Positions 2,943 to 61,105 of a DNA stretch of 64,000 nucleotides are shown here, in pieces. Numbering within the stretch: position 1 is the stretch's first letter; every line of letters starts with the position of its first letter. Below the pieces are notes generated by a model. The model had not been told where the DNA came from and made no database searches. It was given only the letters and a program-made list of their open reading frames with translations. The position numbers and the translations under genes are program-made. The DNA comes from Escherichia coli (lineage in GTDB: Bacteria; Pseudomonadota; Gammaproteobacteria; Enterobacterales; Enterobacteriaceae), in NCBI RefSeq assembly GCF_013122565.1, contig NZ_CP053258.1, one strand, 5' to 3'.

Positions 2943-3413
2943 TCAGGCGTGTTCTTTCAGCCAGTTCAGCACAACGTCGTGGTGATTACTGGTTTTGAAA
3001 TCGTCAAAGACATGTTCGATTTTGCCATCAGCGTCAATCAGGAAGCTGATGCGATGAATACCATCGTAGGTTTTGCCCATGAAGGACTTTTCCCCCCAGA
3101 CGCCGAATTGCTCGCACACCTGGTGGTCTTCATCAGACAGGAGCGTAAAGTTAAGCAGCTCTTTTTCCGCAAAACGGGAGAGTTTTTCGGGTTTATCGGT
3201 GCTGATACCCAGCACATCAACGCCCGCTTTTTTCAACTCATCCATGTTATCGCGTAAGCCGCAGGCCTGTACGGTACAGCCGGGGGTCATGGCTTTCGGG
3301 TAGAAATAAACCAGAACACGCTGTCCCTGGAAGTCGGTCAAATTAACTTGTTCTCCGTCTTGATCCGGCAAGCTAAATTTCGGTGCGATATCACCGGCTT
3401 TCAGTGGATTCAT
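2943..3413 (-). CDS. bcp: thiol peroxidase Bcp (peroxiredoxin, bacterioferritin comigratory protein)
   Basis: 156 aa, MNPLKAGDIAPKFSLPDQDGE..., peroxiredoxin PGCT motif; start overlaps gcvR stop (TAATG). Confidence 0.95.
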   Translation of the reverse strand: MNPLKAGDIAPKFSLPDQDGEQVNLTDFQGQRVLVYFYPKAMTPGCTVQACGLRDNMDELKKAGVDVLGISTDKPEKLSRFAEKELLNFTLLSDEDHQVCEQFGVWGEKSFMGKTYDGIHRISFLIDADGKIEHVFDDFKTSNHHDVVLNWLKEHA

Positions 3414-3985
3414 TACTTAACTCCATCCTGTTCATCATGTTGGGAATAATTGACGACGTTAATACTGCCTTGTGCATTGAGTTCTGTACATAGGGCTTTG
3501 AACGCTTGCTCAATATTTGCTGCGTCCGCAGATGCGGGGCTGTGGGCAGTAATCTGAATATGCAACTGCGCAGCCCGTTCATTTTCAGCAGGTTGTGTGC
3601 GCGACACCAGCTCCGCAATGTTCATATGATGCGCGTCGAAAAGTGCTGTGAAGCGTTCAATTAAATGCGGGGAGTCTGCAACATCGACCTGAACCCAGAC
3701 AGATGCTGGCATTGGCGGACGCGGACGCGCCGTCGTGCGCTTCATCACGATTAAAAGATCCAGTTCGGCACCTTTCAACGGTAACGTTGATTCAATCAGA
3801 GTAATGGCATTCCATGAACCGGAAAGCAGCATGATAAACGTGAACTCTTCTCCCAGCATCGCCAGGCGACTGTCTTCAATATTACAGCCGCAACTACTGA
3901 CATGACGGGTGATGGTGTTCACAATTCCAGGGCGATCGGCACCCAACGCAGTGATCACCAGATAATGTTGCGATGACAGTGTCAA
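3413..3985 (-). CDS. gcvR: glycine cleavage system transcriptional repressor GcvR
   Basis: 190 aa from TTG start reading MTLSSQHYLVITALGADRPGIV (ACT-domain protein); ORF-track upstream extension rejected. Confidence 0.85.
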   Translation of the reverse strand: MTLSSQHYLVITALGADRPGIVNTITRHVSSCGCNIEDSRLAMLGEEFTFIMLLSGSWNAITLIESTLPLKGAELDLLIVMKRTTARPRPPMPASVWVQVDVADSPHLIERFTALFDAHHMNIAELVSRTQPAENERAAQLHIQITAHSPASADAANIEQAFKALCTELNAQGSINVVNYSQHDEQDGVK

Positions 3986-4130
3986 ACTGGTTATTCCTTT
4001 AAGGGGTGAGTTGTTCTTAAGGAAAGCATAAAAAAAACATGCATACAACAATCAGAACGGTTCTGTCTGCTTGCTTTTAATGCCATACCAAACGTACCAT
4101 TGAGACACTTGTTTGCACAGAGGATGGCCC

Positions 4131-16430: not shown

Positions 16431-18131
16431 TTACATCAACTGACTTTCCTCACCCTCCGCAGAGCGAAAGCTAATACTCACTAACGTGCCGCCGCCGGAA
16501 GGTTGTGAAAAAGTCAGCGTCCCACCTAGCCGTTCCGCGCGTTCGCGCATGATATTCAGACCATAATGACCTTCGGGTTCTTTCGGTTCACCGATACCAA
16601 TCCCGTTATCACGGATATAAACCGTGTGATTGCCGTCCGGCGCGGTGACGCAGCTAACGGCGATTTCGCTGGCGTTGGCGTGCTTCATCGCATTCAGCAC
16701 CGCTTCGCGAATAATTTGCAACAAATGCACCTGCATTTGCGCATCCAGTGCCAGGGTTGGCAGACGGCAGTCGAGGGTCAGTTTGGCGCTGGTTTGATTT
16801 TGTAACGTATCCAGCATTTCCCTCAACGCGGAGGGGAGATCCGCCTGCTGCAGCGTCAGGCGGAAAGTAGTCAACAGCTCGCGTAACTGCCGATAAGCAT
16901 CATTCAACGCCTGGGAAAAATCGGCCATGATACTTTGTGCGGTGGCGTTATCTTCCGGTATCGAACGCTTCAGTAACGTCAACTGGATACGTAAGTAAGA
17001 AAGTACCTGAGCCAGCGAGTCGTGCAGTTCGCGGGCGATGGTCGCACGTTCTTCCATCAACAATAACTGCTGAAAATGCTTCTGCGCCTGATTAAAGTAC
17101 AAACCGCGTCCCAGCATCGATGAAACACTGTTAAGCAGCGGTTCTGATGAGGAAACGTGACTATTTTGCCAGTGCAGTTCACCGTAAACCGTCTCTTGCA
17201 TTGTCACCGGTAAAATCTGCATCGGCAATTCCGGGTTTGGTTGCCCTTCGCTAATCCGCCAGTTTTCACCGACATTTAACTCCAGATATTCAGCCGCTTC
17301 ATTGTCGCGAACAATCTGCAAAATATGGCGGAAACAATGCACATCAATCTGGCTGGTGTTCAGCGCCTGCGAACATTGATACAACACCTCCAGACGACGC
17401 TTGGCCTCGTGGAGATCGCGAGTTTTTTCTTCTACCGACGCCTCCAGCGAACGGTACAATTTATGTAGCTCGCTCGACATCTGGTTAAAGGTTTTTGCAA
17501 GCAGGCCAAGCTCATTCGGCAGGCTGGTATCCAGCGGTGGCGAGTCGAACTGCCCGTGTTCAATACGCTGACTGGCGGTAACCAGCTGATTCAGCGGGGC
17601 AACCACCTGATGGCGTATGCGGCGCAAAGTAAAAAAGACCAGCGTGAAAATACCGATGCCGCCAGCCAGGGAAATCGCCACCACCAGCAGCATTTTGCGT
17701 TCAGCGTAGTGCTGTAAAGCCAGCACGAACAGGTCTATCTGATTAACATAATTATTAATATTGGCCTGATACCACGGCAAATCACCCTTGCTGAGCCGAT
17801 TATTCATCTCCAGCCAGTTGGCATTCAGATGCGCATAGCGGGTTTTTACTGCTTCTGGCACATACCAGACGTTGAGATTGGTTAATACTGGTGAATGCAG
17901 TGCCTGCTGAAATAACTGGCGATGTGCATTGAGTTGTGGACTGCCACTTTGCAAGTCGTAGCCCAGGCGGTAACTCTGCATACGCAGCGATCCGGCAATA
18001 TTGATAGCCTCAGCGTCGCGCAAACTGCTCGCCAGAGTTAGCAGAGCGATACCCGTGGAAAGAATCGACAGCAGCACAATGTAAAAAAAGGCCCGGGCCA
18101 GACTGGCCGAGACGGGTCGTTTAACAATCAC
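16431..18131 (-). CDS. narQ: nitrate/nitrite sensor histidine kinase NarQ
   Basis: 566 aa from GTG start (MIVKRPVSASLARAFFYIVLL); HAMP plus HisKA_3 plus ATPase domains. Confidence 0.92.
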   Translation of the reverse strand: MIVKRPVSASLARAFFYIVLLSILSTGIALLTLASSLRDAEAINIAGSLRMQSYRLGYDLQSGSPQLNAHRQLFQQALHSPVLTNLNVWYVPEAVKTRYAHLNANWLEMNNRLSKGDLPWYQANINNYVNQIDLFVLALQHYAERKMLLVVAISLAGGIGIFTLVFFTLRRIRHQVVAPLNQLVTASQRIEHGQFDSPPLDTSLPNELGLLAKTFNQMSSELHKLYRSLEASVEEKTRDLHEAKRRLEVLYQCSQALNTSQIDVHCFRHILQIVRDNEAAEYLELNVGENWRISEGQPNPELPMQILPVTMQETVYGELHWQNSHVSSSEPLLNSVSSMLGRGLYFNQAQKHFQQLLLMEERATIARELHDSLAQVLSYLRIQLTLLKRSIPEDNATAQSIMADFSQALNDAYRQLRELLTTFRLTLQQADLPSALREMLDTLQNQTSAKLTLDCRLPTLALDAQMQVHLLQIIREAVLNAMKHANASEIAVSCVTAPDGNHTVYIRDNGIGIGEPKEPEGHYGLNIMRERAERLGGTLTFSQPSGGGTLVSISFRSAEGEESQLM

Positions 18132-18336
18132 ACGCGTCTTCTCCACAAAAAATCATTAATGTTCCAGTTCGCTGAAACGCAATTTAGTCAGTGATGGGAT
18201 TATTTGATCTGCCACAGTTTATAGCGAAATAGTTACTTATTCTGGGCACATGAACATTGCCGATTCCCCTGTAAGTCGGGTAATAACAACACTCATATAA
18301 AGAATAAGGTTTTTACAACCAAAAAAGAAGGTCGTT

Positions 18337-22146: not shown

Positions 22147-22218
22147 GTAGACCGGATAAGACGCTGTAGGCCGGATAAGACGCGTCAGCGTCGCATCCGG
22201 CAATCAGCATCCGGCGAT
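22147..22218. repeat. REP/BIME element between ypfG and tktB
   Basis: CCGGATAAGACGCTGTAGGCCGGATAAGACGCG...CGCATCCGGC. Confidence 0.8.
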
Positions 22219-28403: not shown

Positions 28404-28883
28404 ATGAAACGAATTGCGTTTGTGGGTACCGTCGGGGCAGGGAAAACAACGTTATTTAATGCGTTGCAGGGGAATTATACCCTCGCCAGAAAAACACAGG
28501 CCGTGGAATTTAATGATAAGGGCGATATTGATACGCCGGGTGAATATTTTAGCCATCCCCGCTGGTATCACGCCTTAATTACCACGCTACAGGATGTGGA
28601 CATGCTGATCTATGTCCACGGCGCGAATGACCCGGAAAGTCGGTTGCCTGCCGGGTTGCTGGATATTGGCGTCAGCAAACGGCAAATCGCCGTCATCAGT
28701 AAAACGGACATGCCAGATGCTGACGTCGCCGCAACGCGAAAGTTATTGCTTGAGACGGGCTTCGAAGAGCCGATTTTCGAGCTAAACAGCCACGACCCGC
28801 AAAGCGTGCAGCAACTGGTGGATTATCTGGCATCTCTCACCAAACAGGAGGAAGCAGGTGAAAAAACTCATCACAGCGAATGA
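28404..28883 (+). CDS. eutP: ethanolamine-utilisation protein EutP (P-loop GTPase-like acetate kinase)
   Basis: 159 aa, MKRIAFVGTVGAGKTTLFNAL Walker A. Confidence 0.92.
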   Translation: MKRIAFVGTVGAGKTTLFNALQGNYTLARKTQAVEFNDKGDIDTPGEYFSHPRWYHALITTLQDVDMLIYVHGANDPESRLPAGLLDIGVSKRQIAVISKTDMPDADVAATRKLLLETGFEEPIFELNSHDPQSVQQLVDYLASLTKQEEAGEKTHHSE

Positions 28884-35641: not shown

Positions 35642-36868
35642 ATGGGAATTAACGAAATCATCATGTACATCATGATGTTCTTTATGCTGATAGCTGCCGT
35701 AGACAGGATCCTGTCGCAGTTCGGCGGTTCTGCTCGTTTCCTCGGTAAGTTCGGTAAAAGTATCGAAGGATCAGGCGGTCAGTTCGAAGAAGGCTTTATG
35801 GCAATGGGCGCTCTGGGTCTGGCGATGGTCGGTATGACCGCGCTGGCACCGGTACTGGCTCACGTACTCGGGCCGGTAATTATCCCGGTTTACGAAATGC
35901 TCGGCGCAAACCCGTCAATGTTCGCCGGAACGCTGCTGGCGTGCGATATGGGCGGCTTCTTCCTCGCCAAAGAGCTGGCGGGCGGCGACGTAGCAGCGTG
36001 GCTATACTCTGGGTTAATTCTCGGGTCGATGATGGGGCCAACGATTGTGTTTTCCATTCCGGTGGCGCTCGGCATTATCGAACCTTCTGACCGTCGTTAT
36101 CTGGCGCTCGGCGTGCTGGCGGGCATTGTGACCATTCCGATTGGTTGTATCGCTGGTGGTCTGGTAGCTATGTACTCCGGTGTTCAGATCAACGGCCAGC
36201 CGGTGGAATTCACTTTCGCCCTGATCCTGATGAACATGATCCCGGTGATCATTGTTGCGATTCTGGTGGCGCTGGGGCTGAAATTCATCCCGGAAAAAAT
36301 GATCAACGGCTTCCAGATCTTCGCCAAATTCCTCGTTGCATTGATCACCCTCGGTCTTGCCGCTGCGGTAGTGAAATTCCTGCTTGGCTGGGAACTGATC
36401 CCCGGTCTGGATCCTATCTTTATGGCCCCTGGCGATAAACCCGGTGAGGTGATGCGCGCCATTGAAGTTATCGGTTCTATCTCCTGCGTGCTGTTAGGGG
36501 CGTATCCGATGGTGCTGCTGCTGACCCGTTGGTTTGAAAAACCGCTGATGAGCGTCGGTAAAGTGCTGAATATGAACAACATCGCGGCAGCCGGCATGGT
36601 GGCAACGCTTGCCAACAACATCCCGATGTTCGGCATGATGAAGCAGATGGATACCCGCGGCAAAGTCATCAACTGCGCCTTCGCCGTTTCCGCTGCTTTC
36701 GCCCTGGGCGACCACTTAGGCTTCGCCGCTGCCAACATGAACGCCATGATTTTCCCGATGATTGTCGGCAAGTTGATCGGCGGCGTAACGGCGATTGGCG
36801 TGGCGATGATGCTGGTGCCAAAAGAAGACGCGACCGCGGCTAAAACCGAAGCGGAGGCACAATCGTGA
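35642..36868 (+). CDS. eutH: ethanolamine permease EutH
   Basis: 408 aa, MGINEIIMYIMMFFMLIAAVDRIL, polytopic membrane protein. Confidence 0.95.
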   Translation: MGINEIIMYIMMFFMLIAAVDRILSQFGGSARFLGKFGKSIEGSGGQFEEGFMAMGALGLAMVGMTALAPVLAHVLGPVIIPVYEMLGANPSMFAGTLLACDMGGFFLAKELAGGDVAAWLYSGLILGSMMGPTIVFSIPVALGIIEPSDRRYLALGVLAGIVTIPIGCIAGGLVAMYSGVQINGQPVEFTFALILMNMIPVIIVAILVALGLKFIPEKMINGFQIFAKFLVALITLGLAAAVVKFLLGWELIPGLDPIFMAPGDKPGEVMRAIEVIGSISCVLLGAYPMVLLLTRWFEKPLMSVGKVLNMNNIAAAGMVATLANNIPMFGMMKQMDTRGKVINCAFAVSAAFALGDHLGFAAANMNAMIFPMIVGKLIGGVTAIGVAMMLVPKEDATAAKTEAEAQS

Positions 36869-50250: not shown

Positions 50251-51147
50251 TTATTCCTTGTCTAAAACCTGACGAATAAAGCCGCCGTGTTGATCCAGGC
50301 GTTTTTTAGCTTCTGCTGCATCGAGATTTTTCAGCACCATCACAATGGCCGTTTTACAGTTGCGCTCGCAGGCAATTAACGCCGCTTCCGCTTGCTCTGC
50401 GCTACATCCGGTAGCGTTTTTGACGATATTGACCTGGCGCACGTGCAGTTTTTCGTTGGTGGCGACCACATCGACCATCAGGTTGCCGAACACTTTGCCG
50501 GATTTAATCATCAGCCCGGTGGAGAGCATATTGAGCACCAGTTTCTGCGCTGTGCCTGCTTTCATTCGCGAAGAACCAGTGACCACTTCGGCACCTACAA
50601 TCGGTGTAATGGCAAACTCGGCGGTGGTTGAAACGGCACTCCCCGGATTACAGGAAATTCCCACTGTGCGGCAGCCGAGCTGGCGTGCGTATTCCAGTCC
50701 GGCAATTACATACGGCGTGCGACCACTGGCCGCAATACCAACCACCACATCCTGCGCGGTTAAACCGATGTTTTTCAGATCGTTAACGCCGCCTTCCCGG
50801 CTATCTTCCGCGCCTTCCACCGCGTGCTGAATGGCATATTCGCCGCCAGCAATTAATCCAACTACCAGGCCTGGTTTCACGCCGTAGGTGGGCGGACATT
50901 CGCTGGCATCCAGAATCCCCAGACGACCGGATGTTCCCGCACCGAGATAAATCAGACGACCGCCGCCGCTTACCTGGGCGTGGATAACATCGATCGCCGC
51001 GGCGATATCCGGCAGGACGCGCTCAACAGCAAGCGGTACGGCTTTATCTTCATCGTTGATAATCCGGCACATTTCCAGCGTCGATACGCGGTCAATTTCA
51101 GCCGAAGCGGCGTTTGAGCCTTCAGTAATCATCTTTTCAAGTTGCAT
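50251..51147 (-). CDS. murQ: N-acetylmuramic acid 6-phosphate etherase
   Basis: 298 aa, [34 protein letters not shown] domain. Confidence 0.95.
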
Positions 51148-57203: not shown

Positions 57204-57224
57204 TAGGTTGAGTGAATGTTAAAC

Positions 57225-57258
57225 GCCCGGAGGCGCTTCCAGCGATCCGGGTTTTTTA
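57225..57258 (+). terminator. hairpin plus T-run after cysA
   Basis: CCCGGAGGCGCTTCCAGCGATCCGGG followed by TTTTTT. Confidence 0.55.
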
Positions 57259-57277
57259 ATGGCAAGGTTTGTAACCT

Positions 57278-57315
57278 GTAGGCCTGATAAGACGCGCAAG
57301 CGTCGCATAAGGCAA
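57278..57315. repeat. REP-like palindromic unit just upstream of cysM
   Basis: GTAGGCCTGATAAGACGCGCAAGCGTCGCATAAGGC. Confidence 0.7.
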
Positions 57316-57336
57316 CACCACGTATGGACAGAGATC

Positions 57337-58248
57337 GTGAGTACATTAGAACAAACAATAGGCAATACGCCTCTGGTGAAGTTGCAGCGAATGGGGCCGA
57401 ATAACGGCAGTGAAGTGTGGTTAAAACTGGAAGGCAATAACCCGGCAGGTTCGGTGAAAGATCGTGCGGCGCTTTCGATGATCGTCGAGGCGGAAAAGCG
57501 CGGGGAAATTAAACCGGGTGATGTGTTAATCGAAGCCACCAGTGGTAACACCGGCATTGCGCTGGCAATGATTGCCGCGCTTAAAGGCTATCGCATGAAA
57601 TTGCTGATGCCCGACAACATGAGCCAGGAACGCCGTGCGGCGATGCGTGCTTATGGTGCGGAACTGATTCTTGTCACCAAAGAGCAGGGCATGGAAGGTG
57701 CGCGCGATCTGGCGCTGGAGATGGCGAATCGTGGTGAAGGAAAGCTGCTCGATCAGTTCAATAATCCCGATAACCCTTATGCGCATTACACCACCACCGG
57801 GCCGGAAATCTGGCAGCAGACTGGCGGGCGCATTACCCATTTTGTCTCCAGCATGGGAACAACCGGTACTATCACCGGCGTTTCACGCTTTATGCGCGAA
57901 CAATCCAAACCGGTGACCATTGTTGGCCTGCAGCCGGAAGAGGGTAGCAGCATTCCCGGCATTCGCCGCTGGCCTGCGGAATATCTGCCGGGGATTTTCA
58001 ACGCTTCTCTGGTGGATGAGGTGCTGGATATTCATCAGCGCGATGCGGAAAACACCATGCGCGAACTGGCAGTGCGGGAAGGAATATTCTGTGGCGTCAG
58101 CTCCGGCGGCGCGGTTGCCGGAGCATTGCGGGTGGCAAAAGCTAACCCTGGTGCGGTGGTGGTAGCGATCATCTGCGATCGTGGCGATCGCTACCTCTCC
58201 ACCGGAGTGTTTGGGGAAGAGCATTTTAGCCAGGGAGCGGGGATTTAA
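57337..58248 (+). CDS. cysM: cysteine synthase B (O-acetylserine sulfhydrylase B)
   Basis: 303 aa from GTG start reading MSTLEQTIGNTPLVKLQRMGP; PLP enzyme. Confidence 0.93.
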   Translation: MSTLEQTIGNTPLVKLQRMGPNNGSEVWLKLEGNNPAGSVKDRAALSMIVEAEKRGEIKPGDVLIEATSGNTGIALAMIAALKGYRMKLLMPDNMSQERRAAMRAYGAELILVTKEQGMEGARDLALEMANRGEGKLLDQFNNPDNPYAHYTTTGPEIWQQTGGRITHFVSSMGTTGTITGVSRFMREQSKPVTIVGLQPEEGSSIPGIRRWPAEYLPGIFNASLVDEVLDIHQRDAENTMRELAVREGIFCGVSSGGAVAGALRVAKANPGAVVVAIICDRGDRYLSTGVFGEEHFSQGAGI

Positions 58249-58277
58249 GGATTAATAGCATTGGAGACTGATGACAA

Positions 58278-58371
58278 ACGCAAAACTGCCTGATGTGCCA
58301 CGCTTATCAGGCCTACAAGGTTTCTGCAATATATTGAATTAGCACGATTTTGTAGGCCGGATAAGGCGTTT
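58278..58371. repeat. BIME: intact PU plus left half of a second PU that is split by the IS
   Basis: TGCCTGATGTGCCACGCTTATCAGGCCTAC ... CTGCAATATATTGAATT ... GTAGGCCGGATAAGGCGTTT. Confidence 0.8.
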
Positions 58372-59277
<906 letters not shown>

Positions 59278-59778
59278 TTTCCAGGAGATGCTCCTGCATG
59301 GCTTTCAGATATGCATTTTCTGCGCGAAGATAACGCAGCTCATTCTTCATCTCTTCCGGCGTCATGTTTGCCTCGTTTTCATGGGTATCATCAGAACGGG
59401 TCATGCTTTTCTCCTTCCTGCGCCTGATAAAGGCCTCATTACCAGATTTGCGGTAGCCTTTTATCCAGTTTTTAACCATGTTGTGGCTGGGAATGTTAAA
59501 CCGGGCAGCTACCCGGGGTAGAGACTCAGAATGCCCGAGAGCATAAAGAACCACGCAAAGTTTATCTTCAGGAGAATAGCTACGCTTGTGTCTGCAATCC
59601 AGTGCCTGAGGACCGTGAAGAAGAAAAAGATTAATCCAGTGTGAGAGGCTGGTGTGAGAAAGTTGAAAGAGTTTTGCCGTAGAAAGGATGCCTGCATGAC
59701 CGGCCAGGTAATGATTTACAGCGGCAAGTTTTACTTCAAATGAATGTTTCATAAACTGCACCTTCAGATGTCAGATTA

Positions 59779-59803
59779 TGTCCAACATTTGGGGTGCAGT
59801 TCA
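59779..59803. repeat. IS terminal inverted repeat (orfA-proximal end)
   Basis: reverse complement TGAACTGCACCCCAAATGTTGGACA. Confidence 0.8.
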
Positions 59804-59822
59804 GTTTACGCCGCATCCGGCA
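59804..59822. repeat. right half of REP palindromic unit split by the IS (includes GTTT direct repeat)
   Basis: GTTTACGCCGCATCCGGCA; with 58350..58371 reconstitutes GTAGGCCGGATAAGGCGTTTACGCCGCATCCGGCA. Confidence 0.8.
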
Positions 59823-59872
59823 TAAACAAAGCGCACTTTGTCAACAGTTGTTGCTGCCGACAAATGCAGTAT

Positions 59873-60639: not shown

Positions 60640-61105
<466 letters not shown>

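Follow-up and report, generated by a model that had tools for sequence, protein, structure and literature searches.

The E. coli genes gcvR, narQ and cysM are all annotated with start codons other than ATG, and each has some earlier record. For gcvR, Ghrist and Stauffer (J Bacteriol 1998) reportedly determined the UUG start, together with a nearby transcription start, by experiment. The narQ site has been dissected too: the codon annotated as its start forms the 3' GUG in a GUGUGA motif, in which an out-of-frame 5' GUG and the UGA directly behind it make up a start-stop ORF (PMC9841429; NAR 2022). In the same study, luciferase reporters carrying the K-12 narQ site showed that both GUGs initiate, that an A4 to G change lowers expression from the 3' GUG ~5-fold, and that reporter output is 7-8-fold higher when the construct offers one unambiguous GUG (PMC9841429). 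As for cysM, it is one of the 50 GTG starts which, along with 10 TTG starts, have been proteomically confirmed in E. coli by TRAINSPOTTER (PMC13245402). Across annotated prokaryotic starts, GUG accounts for ~14% and UUG for ~4%, giving ~18% together (PMC9841429, introduction). Compared with near-cognate initiation in bacteria generally, the starts described here show no difference in kind; the one thing that sets gcvR apart is a rare UUG that does not vary among 80 species.

The window and its non-ATG starts

The window, by which we mean the whole 64,000-nucleotide stretch analysed, is a piece of non-K-12 E. coli chromosome that nearly every complete E. coli genome matches at 95-100% identity, and its orientation is antiparallel to MG1655 at ~2.536-2.604 Mb. 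RefSeq names the three genes here gcvR, narQ and cysM, and they are recognisable as the K-12 orthologues: the first 150 nt of each are 98.7-100% identical to K-12, gene order is collinear, and the neighbourhoods are kept (bcp-gcvR/dapA, acrD-narQ/aegA and cysPUWA-cysM). In near-identical E. coli genomes, the PGAP/RefSeq coding sequences start at what corresponds to window positions 3985 (gcvR), 18131 (narQ) and 57337 (cysM), and in MG1655 (NC_000913.3) the genes occupy 2599906-2600478, 2585731-2587431 and 2538672-2539583, respectively. The start codons of MG1655 gcvR (b2479), narQ (b2469) and cysM (b2421) are the same TTG, GTG and GTG, and the protein lengths are equal at 190, 566 and 303 aa. 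The window sequence is exactly that of K-12 from -80 to +30 at gcvR and from -60 to +30 at narQ, whilst 3 of the 60 bases upstream of cysM differ, as does CysM residue 22 (N in the window, D in K-12; PNNG versus PDNG).

A first-pass annotation, made from the sequence alone, had placed the N-termini MTLSSQ, MIVKRPV and MSTLEQ on TTG or GTG codons, and had regarded the in-frame upstream extensions of its ORF track as probably untranslated. Direct reading and the six-frame ORF list agree on those codons, and the inferred starts coincide with both RefSeq/PGAP and the curated MG1655 annotation. The upstream extensions do exist, at 22 codons for gcvR, 5 for narQ and 26 for cysM; that they are probably untranslated is likewise borne out by the evidence given below, such that this reading of all three starts is supported. 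Strands were not given in that annotation; since gcvR and narQ are minus-strand genes, the plus-strand letters at their starts are CAA and CAC.

Mapping the MG1655 annotation onto the window yields non-ATG starts at 5 of 60 genes, namely TTG at gcvR and GTG at narQ, eutQ, eutA and cysM. The idea that the window holds an unusual cluster of such starts is rejected, as 5/60 falls below the ~18% seen genome-wide. The earlier list of non-ATG starts was incomplete, for it omitted eutQ, eutA and a strain-specific case at yfeK:

28858-28860, plus strand: eutQ GTG start (MG1655 annotation and window agree)
36865-36867, plus strand: eutA GTG start (MG1655 annotation and window agree)
61012-61014, minus strand: yfeK GTG start (K-12 has ATG)

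The GTG and ATG alleles of yfeK share the same AAGGA Shine-Dalgarno sequence and encode the same 124-aa protein, and in an ETEC genome with the same allele the GTG is the start that RefSeq assigns to yfeK; the difference is a start-codon polymorphism within the species. A start of another kind is recorded for murQ, whose start region lies at ~51130-51147 (minus strand) in the window: TRAINSPOTTER lists for K-12 an alternative start that lies 5 codons 3' of the annotated ATG, with the peptide MITEGSNTASAEIDR and no Ribo-seq support (PMC13245402, Table S1 row 526). In the eut region, the cryptic prophage CPZ-55, which in K-12 covers 6.8 kb (2558691-2565480) and interrupts the eut operon, is absent at window ~38270, and eutA (start 36865) directly precedes eutB (start 38280).

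The gcvR and narQ starts

At gcvR, the letters at 3985..3983 on the minus strand read TTG, followed by ACA CTG TCA TCG CAA (T L S S Q). The features of the locus are:

3413..3985, minus strand: gcvR coding sequence, 190 aa plus stop (ORF list, RefSeq, MG1655)
3983..3985, minus strand: gcvR TTG initiation codon (direct reading, RefSeq, MG1655, 80/80 loci)
3994..3998, minus strand: gcvR Shine-Dalgarno sequence AGGAA, 8-9 nt 5' of the TTG (invariant in 80/80 loci)
3986..4051, minus strand: in-frame upstream stretch of 22 codons from TTG 4051, read as 5' UTR/promoter DNA

The longest mechanical ORF begins instead at TTG 4051, giving 212 rather than 190 aa, with 22 added codons that translate as MLYACFFYAFLKNNSPLKGITS. 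We surveyed gcvR with one genome per species, which gave 80 Enterobacteriaceae loci at 85-99% protein identity. The aligned start is TTG in all 80 species, a count that is not circular, since a back-translated M would demand ATG and the loci must therefore have been picked up via internal peptide patterns. The AGGAA at -13..-9 is likewise unchanged in every one of the 80 loci. Column entropy across the same alignment shows a typical coding pattern from codon 2 onward (0.28/0.13/1.05 for the three codon positions), versus no codon periodicity in the 24 nt 5' of the TTG (0.63/0.68/0.75). Furthermore, 29 of the 80 loci, among them Enterobacter, Kluyvera, Leclercia, Lelliottia and Franconibacter, carry an in-frame stop 8-12 codons upstream with no ATG, GTG or TTG in between, leaving the TTG as the sole available start in those species.

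Within Escherichia itself, the stretch also changes frame. A run of C residues lies between the gcvR promoter region and the Shine-Dalgarno sequence, directly 5' of the latter (4004-4007, minus strand). It counts 4 C in the window, as in K-12, whilst representatives of other E. coli lineages have 5 and E. albertii has 8, such that the frame of the supposed extension shifts with the length of the run. The duplex with the 16S 3' end is also far stronger at the annotated codon (-5.6 kcal/mol) than at the upstream TTGs (-1.6 kcal/mol), against a background mean of -2.7 kcal/mol. Considering this comparison across genomes, the stretch upstream of gcvR is best read as noncoding 5' UTR/promoter DNA. 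A full-text literature search for gcvR together with UUG found no paper.

At narQ, 18131..18129 on the minus strand reads GTG, followed by ATT GTT AAA CGA CCC GTC (I V K R P V), and the features are:

16431..18131, minus strand: narQ coding sequence, 566 aa plus stop (ORF list, RefSeq, MG1655)
18129..18131, minus strand: narQ GTG initiation codon, the 3' GUG of GUGUGA (reading, RefSeq, MG1655, 6 species)
18128..18133, minus strand: GTGTGA start-stop site (direct reading; identical to K-12)
18141..18144, minus strand: narQ Shine-Dalgarno sequence GGAG (duplex energy; Table 3 of PMC9841429)
18132..18146, minus strand: in-frame upstream stretch of 5 codons from GTG 18146, this GTG lying within GUGGAG

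Here the longest mechanical ORF begins at GTG 18146 and gains only five codons, MEKTR (571 versus 566 aa). The annotated GTG was found in all six species compared (E. coli, Salmonella enterica, E. fergusonii, C. amalonaticus, C. koseri and C. rodentium), whilst an in-frame start at -5 is absent from all five species other than E. coli, three of which have no upstream in-frame start at all before a stop. The upstream GTG of E. coli forms the first three bases of GUGGAG, and thus overlaps the GGAG Shine-Dalgarno sequence itself. This GGAG pairs at -6.4 kcal/mol with a spacing of ~8-9 nt to the annotated GTG; for the upstream GTG, the best match reaches only -3.3 kcal/mol at a distance of 15 nt, and none is usable.

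The window has the same GGAG-N9-GUGUGA (18144..18128, minus strand) as the site studied with reporters, without any difference in E. coli: two GUGs 2 nt apart, with an A at +4 that creates a UGA immediately after the 5' GUG. Those reporters place initiation at GUGUG (PMC9841429), and together with the comparison among species they argue that the five-codon extension is probably untranslated. Among the five species other than E. coli, the GUGUGA context occurs in C. amalonaticus only, and not in Salmonella, E. fergusonii, C. koseri or C. rodentium; from these sequences the motif looks lineage-specific, with the GTG itself conserved. In E. fergusonii, an in-frame ATG stands two codons 5' of the conserved GTG (ATG CGA GTG), and one database NarQ product begins MRVIVKRPV (570 aa); use of this ATG is doubtful, as no more than 3 nt separate it from GGAG.

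cysM and the cysA-cysM spacer

cysM is read from the plus strand, where 57337..57339 is GTG, followed by AGT ACA TTA GAA CAA (S T L E Q). The gene and the spacer that separates it from cysA comprise the following:

57337..58248, plus strand: cysM coding sequence, 303 aa plus stop (ORF list, RefSeq, MG1655)
57337..57339, plus strand: cysM GTG initiation codon (reading, RefSeq, MG1655, 8/8 sequences, published peptides)
57259..57336, plus strand: in-frame upstream stretch of 26 codons from ATG 57259, read as intergenic
57225..57257, plus strand: terminator-like hairpin and T-run 3' of cysA (fold of -17.4 kcal/mol, ViennaRNA; inverted repeat)
57282..57308, plus strand: REP-type repeat within the putative cysM extension (second copy in the window; hairpin fold)

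N-terminal proteomics had been proposed as a check on the starts, and for cysM the answer is already published: TRAINSPOTTER reports the N-terminal peptides MSTLEQTIGNTPLVKLQR and STLEQTIGNTPLVKLQR (PMC13245402, Table S1 rows 521-522), in forms that both retain and lack the initiator Met (MSTLEQ… and STLEQ…). That table assigns the site to the database starts (GTG at 2539583..2539581), records support for it from both Ribo-RET and INRI, and lists no further cysM site 5' of it, even though the search covered a six-frame database (PMC13245402). The peptides thus lie at the GTG, with none from the extension.

The GTG is present in 8/8 sequences, namely the window, K-12 and six other loci (Cronobacter sakazakii, Atlantibacter, Enterobacter sp., Pluralibacter gergoviae and two more enterobacterial loci), and JGI CysM records give V as the first residue, which implies a GTG codon. 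Upstream of cysM in Cronobacter and in the P0131 locus, there is a stop at -4 and no alternative start. CysM homologues of 303-304 aa all start at the same aligned residue, M[SNKT]TL, bearing in mind that N-termini which databases take from gene callers do not count as independent evidence. Shine-Dalgarno energy was rejected as a means of discriminating between the candidate starts of cysM, as both score equally: only GGA/GAG is available, at -3.0 kcal/mol for the GTG versus -3.2 for the upstream ATG, with the background mean at -2.7.

The longest mechanical ORF, from ATG 57259, would give 329 rather than 303 aa, the 26 added codons translating as MARFVTCRPDKTRKRRIRQHHVWTEI. This ATG starts 2 nt past the T-run of the hairpin that follows cysA, whose inverted repeat pairs 57221-57231 with 57246-57256, and the frame then passes through the REP-type repeat. 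REP elements are extragenic, multicopy, imperfect palindromes of ~30-35 nt, and the repeat fits this description: a second copy lies downstream of ypfG at 22170-22196 (plus strand) with 3 mismatches, where 0 would be expected by chance, and an 801-bp query that includes the cysM repeat has matches at up to 15 places in an E. coli genome, the median being 4. Some E. coli strains do not have the upstream ATG at all, as seen from the gene-caller products P0123 and P0124; extended CysM products called in other strains are of differing lengths and do without this ATG (…SGFFLWQGFVTCRS… and …SGLFNGKVVTCRP…, for example). The stretch upstream of cysM is therefore best read as intergenic and noncoding. 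Consensus scans for sigma-70 promoters and intrinsic terminators around all three starts yielded nothing useful; the hairpin behind cysA has a structured loop that fails the terminator scan, and was recovered by folding and by the inverted-repeat search.

In several genera, a GC-rich hairpin with a T-run, either a cysA terminator or REP-like, ends ~15-20 nt before the cysM GTG, so close that almost no Shine-Dalgarno sequence is left. The position of cysM behind a terminator raises the question of how it is transcribed and translated.

On the other side of the gene, ~1.6 kb between cysM and yfeS (58249-59872) is not found in K-12, and contains two ORFs:

59761..59231, minus strand: ORF with HTH_28/HTH_Tnp_1, in the insert downstream of cysM
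59126..58404, minus strand: ORF with HTH_21, rve and rve_2, in the insert downstream of cysM

This two-ORF insert has the layout of an IS3-family insertion sequence.

Alternative starts and possible limits on expression

Taken together, we hold that gcvR, narQ and cysM use three ordinary near-cognate starts and that the in-frame stretches upstream of them are untranslated leader or intergenic DNA, a reading to which we give a probability of roughly 0.93. On this model, fMet-tRNA(fMet) would decode UUG at gcvR and GUG at narQ and cysM as the first Met, to give MTLSSQ…, MIVKRPV… and MSTLEQ…. The 30S subunit would be placed by the Shine-Dalgarno sequences AGGAA at gcvR and GGAG at narQ, each 8-9 nt 5' of its start codon, that of cysM being weak. 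All three genes have the near-cognate codon at residue 1, as is characteristic of Shine-Dalgarno-led near-cognate starts; the Shine-Dalgarno sequence expected 5-10 nt upstream is present at gcvR (-5.6) and narQ (-6.4), whilst at cysM (-3.0) it is no better than background. At narQ, published reporters show that the out-of-frame 5' GUG of the start-stop ORF competes with the annotated 3' GUG. For GcvR and NarQ, the argument that these are the probable starts rests on conservation and Shine-Dalgarno geometry, plus the reporters for narQ, the comparison covering five other species for narQ and six other loci for cysM. No N-terminal or start-site record for GcvR or NarQ was found in the supplements of TRAINSPOTTER, TetRP, INRI-seq or Giess et al., and the TetRP, INRI-seq, Giess et al. 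and Salmonella riboproteogenomics supplements contain no start-site record for any of the three genes; the sole match in those four is cysM in the INRI-seq PNA off-target table.

Perhaps the upstream codons (TTG 4051/4048, GTG 18146 and ATG 57259) are used as well, producing a minor N-terminally extended proteoform. The upstream frames of all three genes are open in E. coli, where upstream alternative starts do occur (17 uTISs in TRAINSPOTTER; PMC13245402), and conservation alone is compatible with a low level of such use. At cysM, the upstream codon is moreover a strong ATG whose Shine-Dalgarno score equals that of the GTG, and some gene callers do emit extended CysM products. However, the six-frame search of TRAINSPOTTER lists no uTIS for cysM, whose upstream ATG sits between a terminator T-run and a REP palindrome; the upstream GTG of narQ is buried in the Shine-Dalgarno sequence and lacks one of its own; and the extensions vary in sequence, frame and start codon both within Escherichia and across genera. 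We consider an extended proteoform very improbable. Scarcely credible is the opposite case, in which the true starts are internal ATG or GTG codons downstream and the annotated N-termini are over-extended: annotation of non-ATG starts is more error-prone, and the version suffix of MG1655 GcvR (NP_416974.4) suggests a revised protein record, but no downstream start-like codon of gcvR is conserved among the 80 loci (the first is codon 9, 10, 14, 22, 29, 41 or 43, depending on the species) and coding periodicity begins at codon 2, the cysM peptides start at the GTG and largely refute this reading for that gene, and the homologues of NarQ, like those of CysM, share one aligned first residue.

With the annotated codons as the preferred starts, there is nothing new in the sites as such, since reference annotation or published work already covers all three, and they make no open question testable. 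Their value lies in quality control, as a longest-ORF track over-extends gcvR, narQ and cysM, and the right starts matter for N-terminal tagging, for the definition of promoters and UTRs, and for keeping spurious extended proteins out of databases, which already contain several such CysM products.

Near-cognate start codons initiate less efficiently than AUG, and the three starts would thus probably help to hold two regulators, GcvR and NarQ, and a minor cysteine synthase, CysM, at low levels. This inferred step agrees with a gcvR UUG that never varies among the species surveyed, and with the reporter results for narQ. One could go further, and posit that these weak starts are selected expression-limiting devices and not neutral accidents, an idea that for gcvR has reportedly been published at least in part by Ghrist and Stauffer in 1998. 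At gcvR, the UUG and the spacing of its AGGAA are fixed in 80 species, in a setting where neighbouring synonymous sites have substantially diverged. We regard this candidate as tentative, at slightly short of even odds, though its implications can be stated: selection would hold GcvR low relative to its partner GcvA, and cysM, with a GUG start and almost no Shine-Dalgarno sequence, and placed directly behind the cysA terminator hairpin in several genera, would need read-through of that terminator for CysM to be synthesised.
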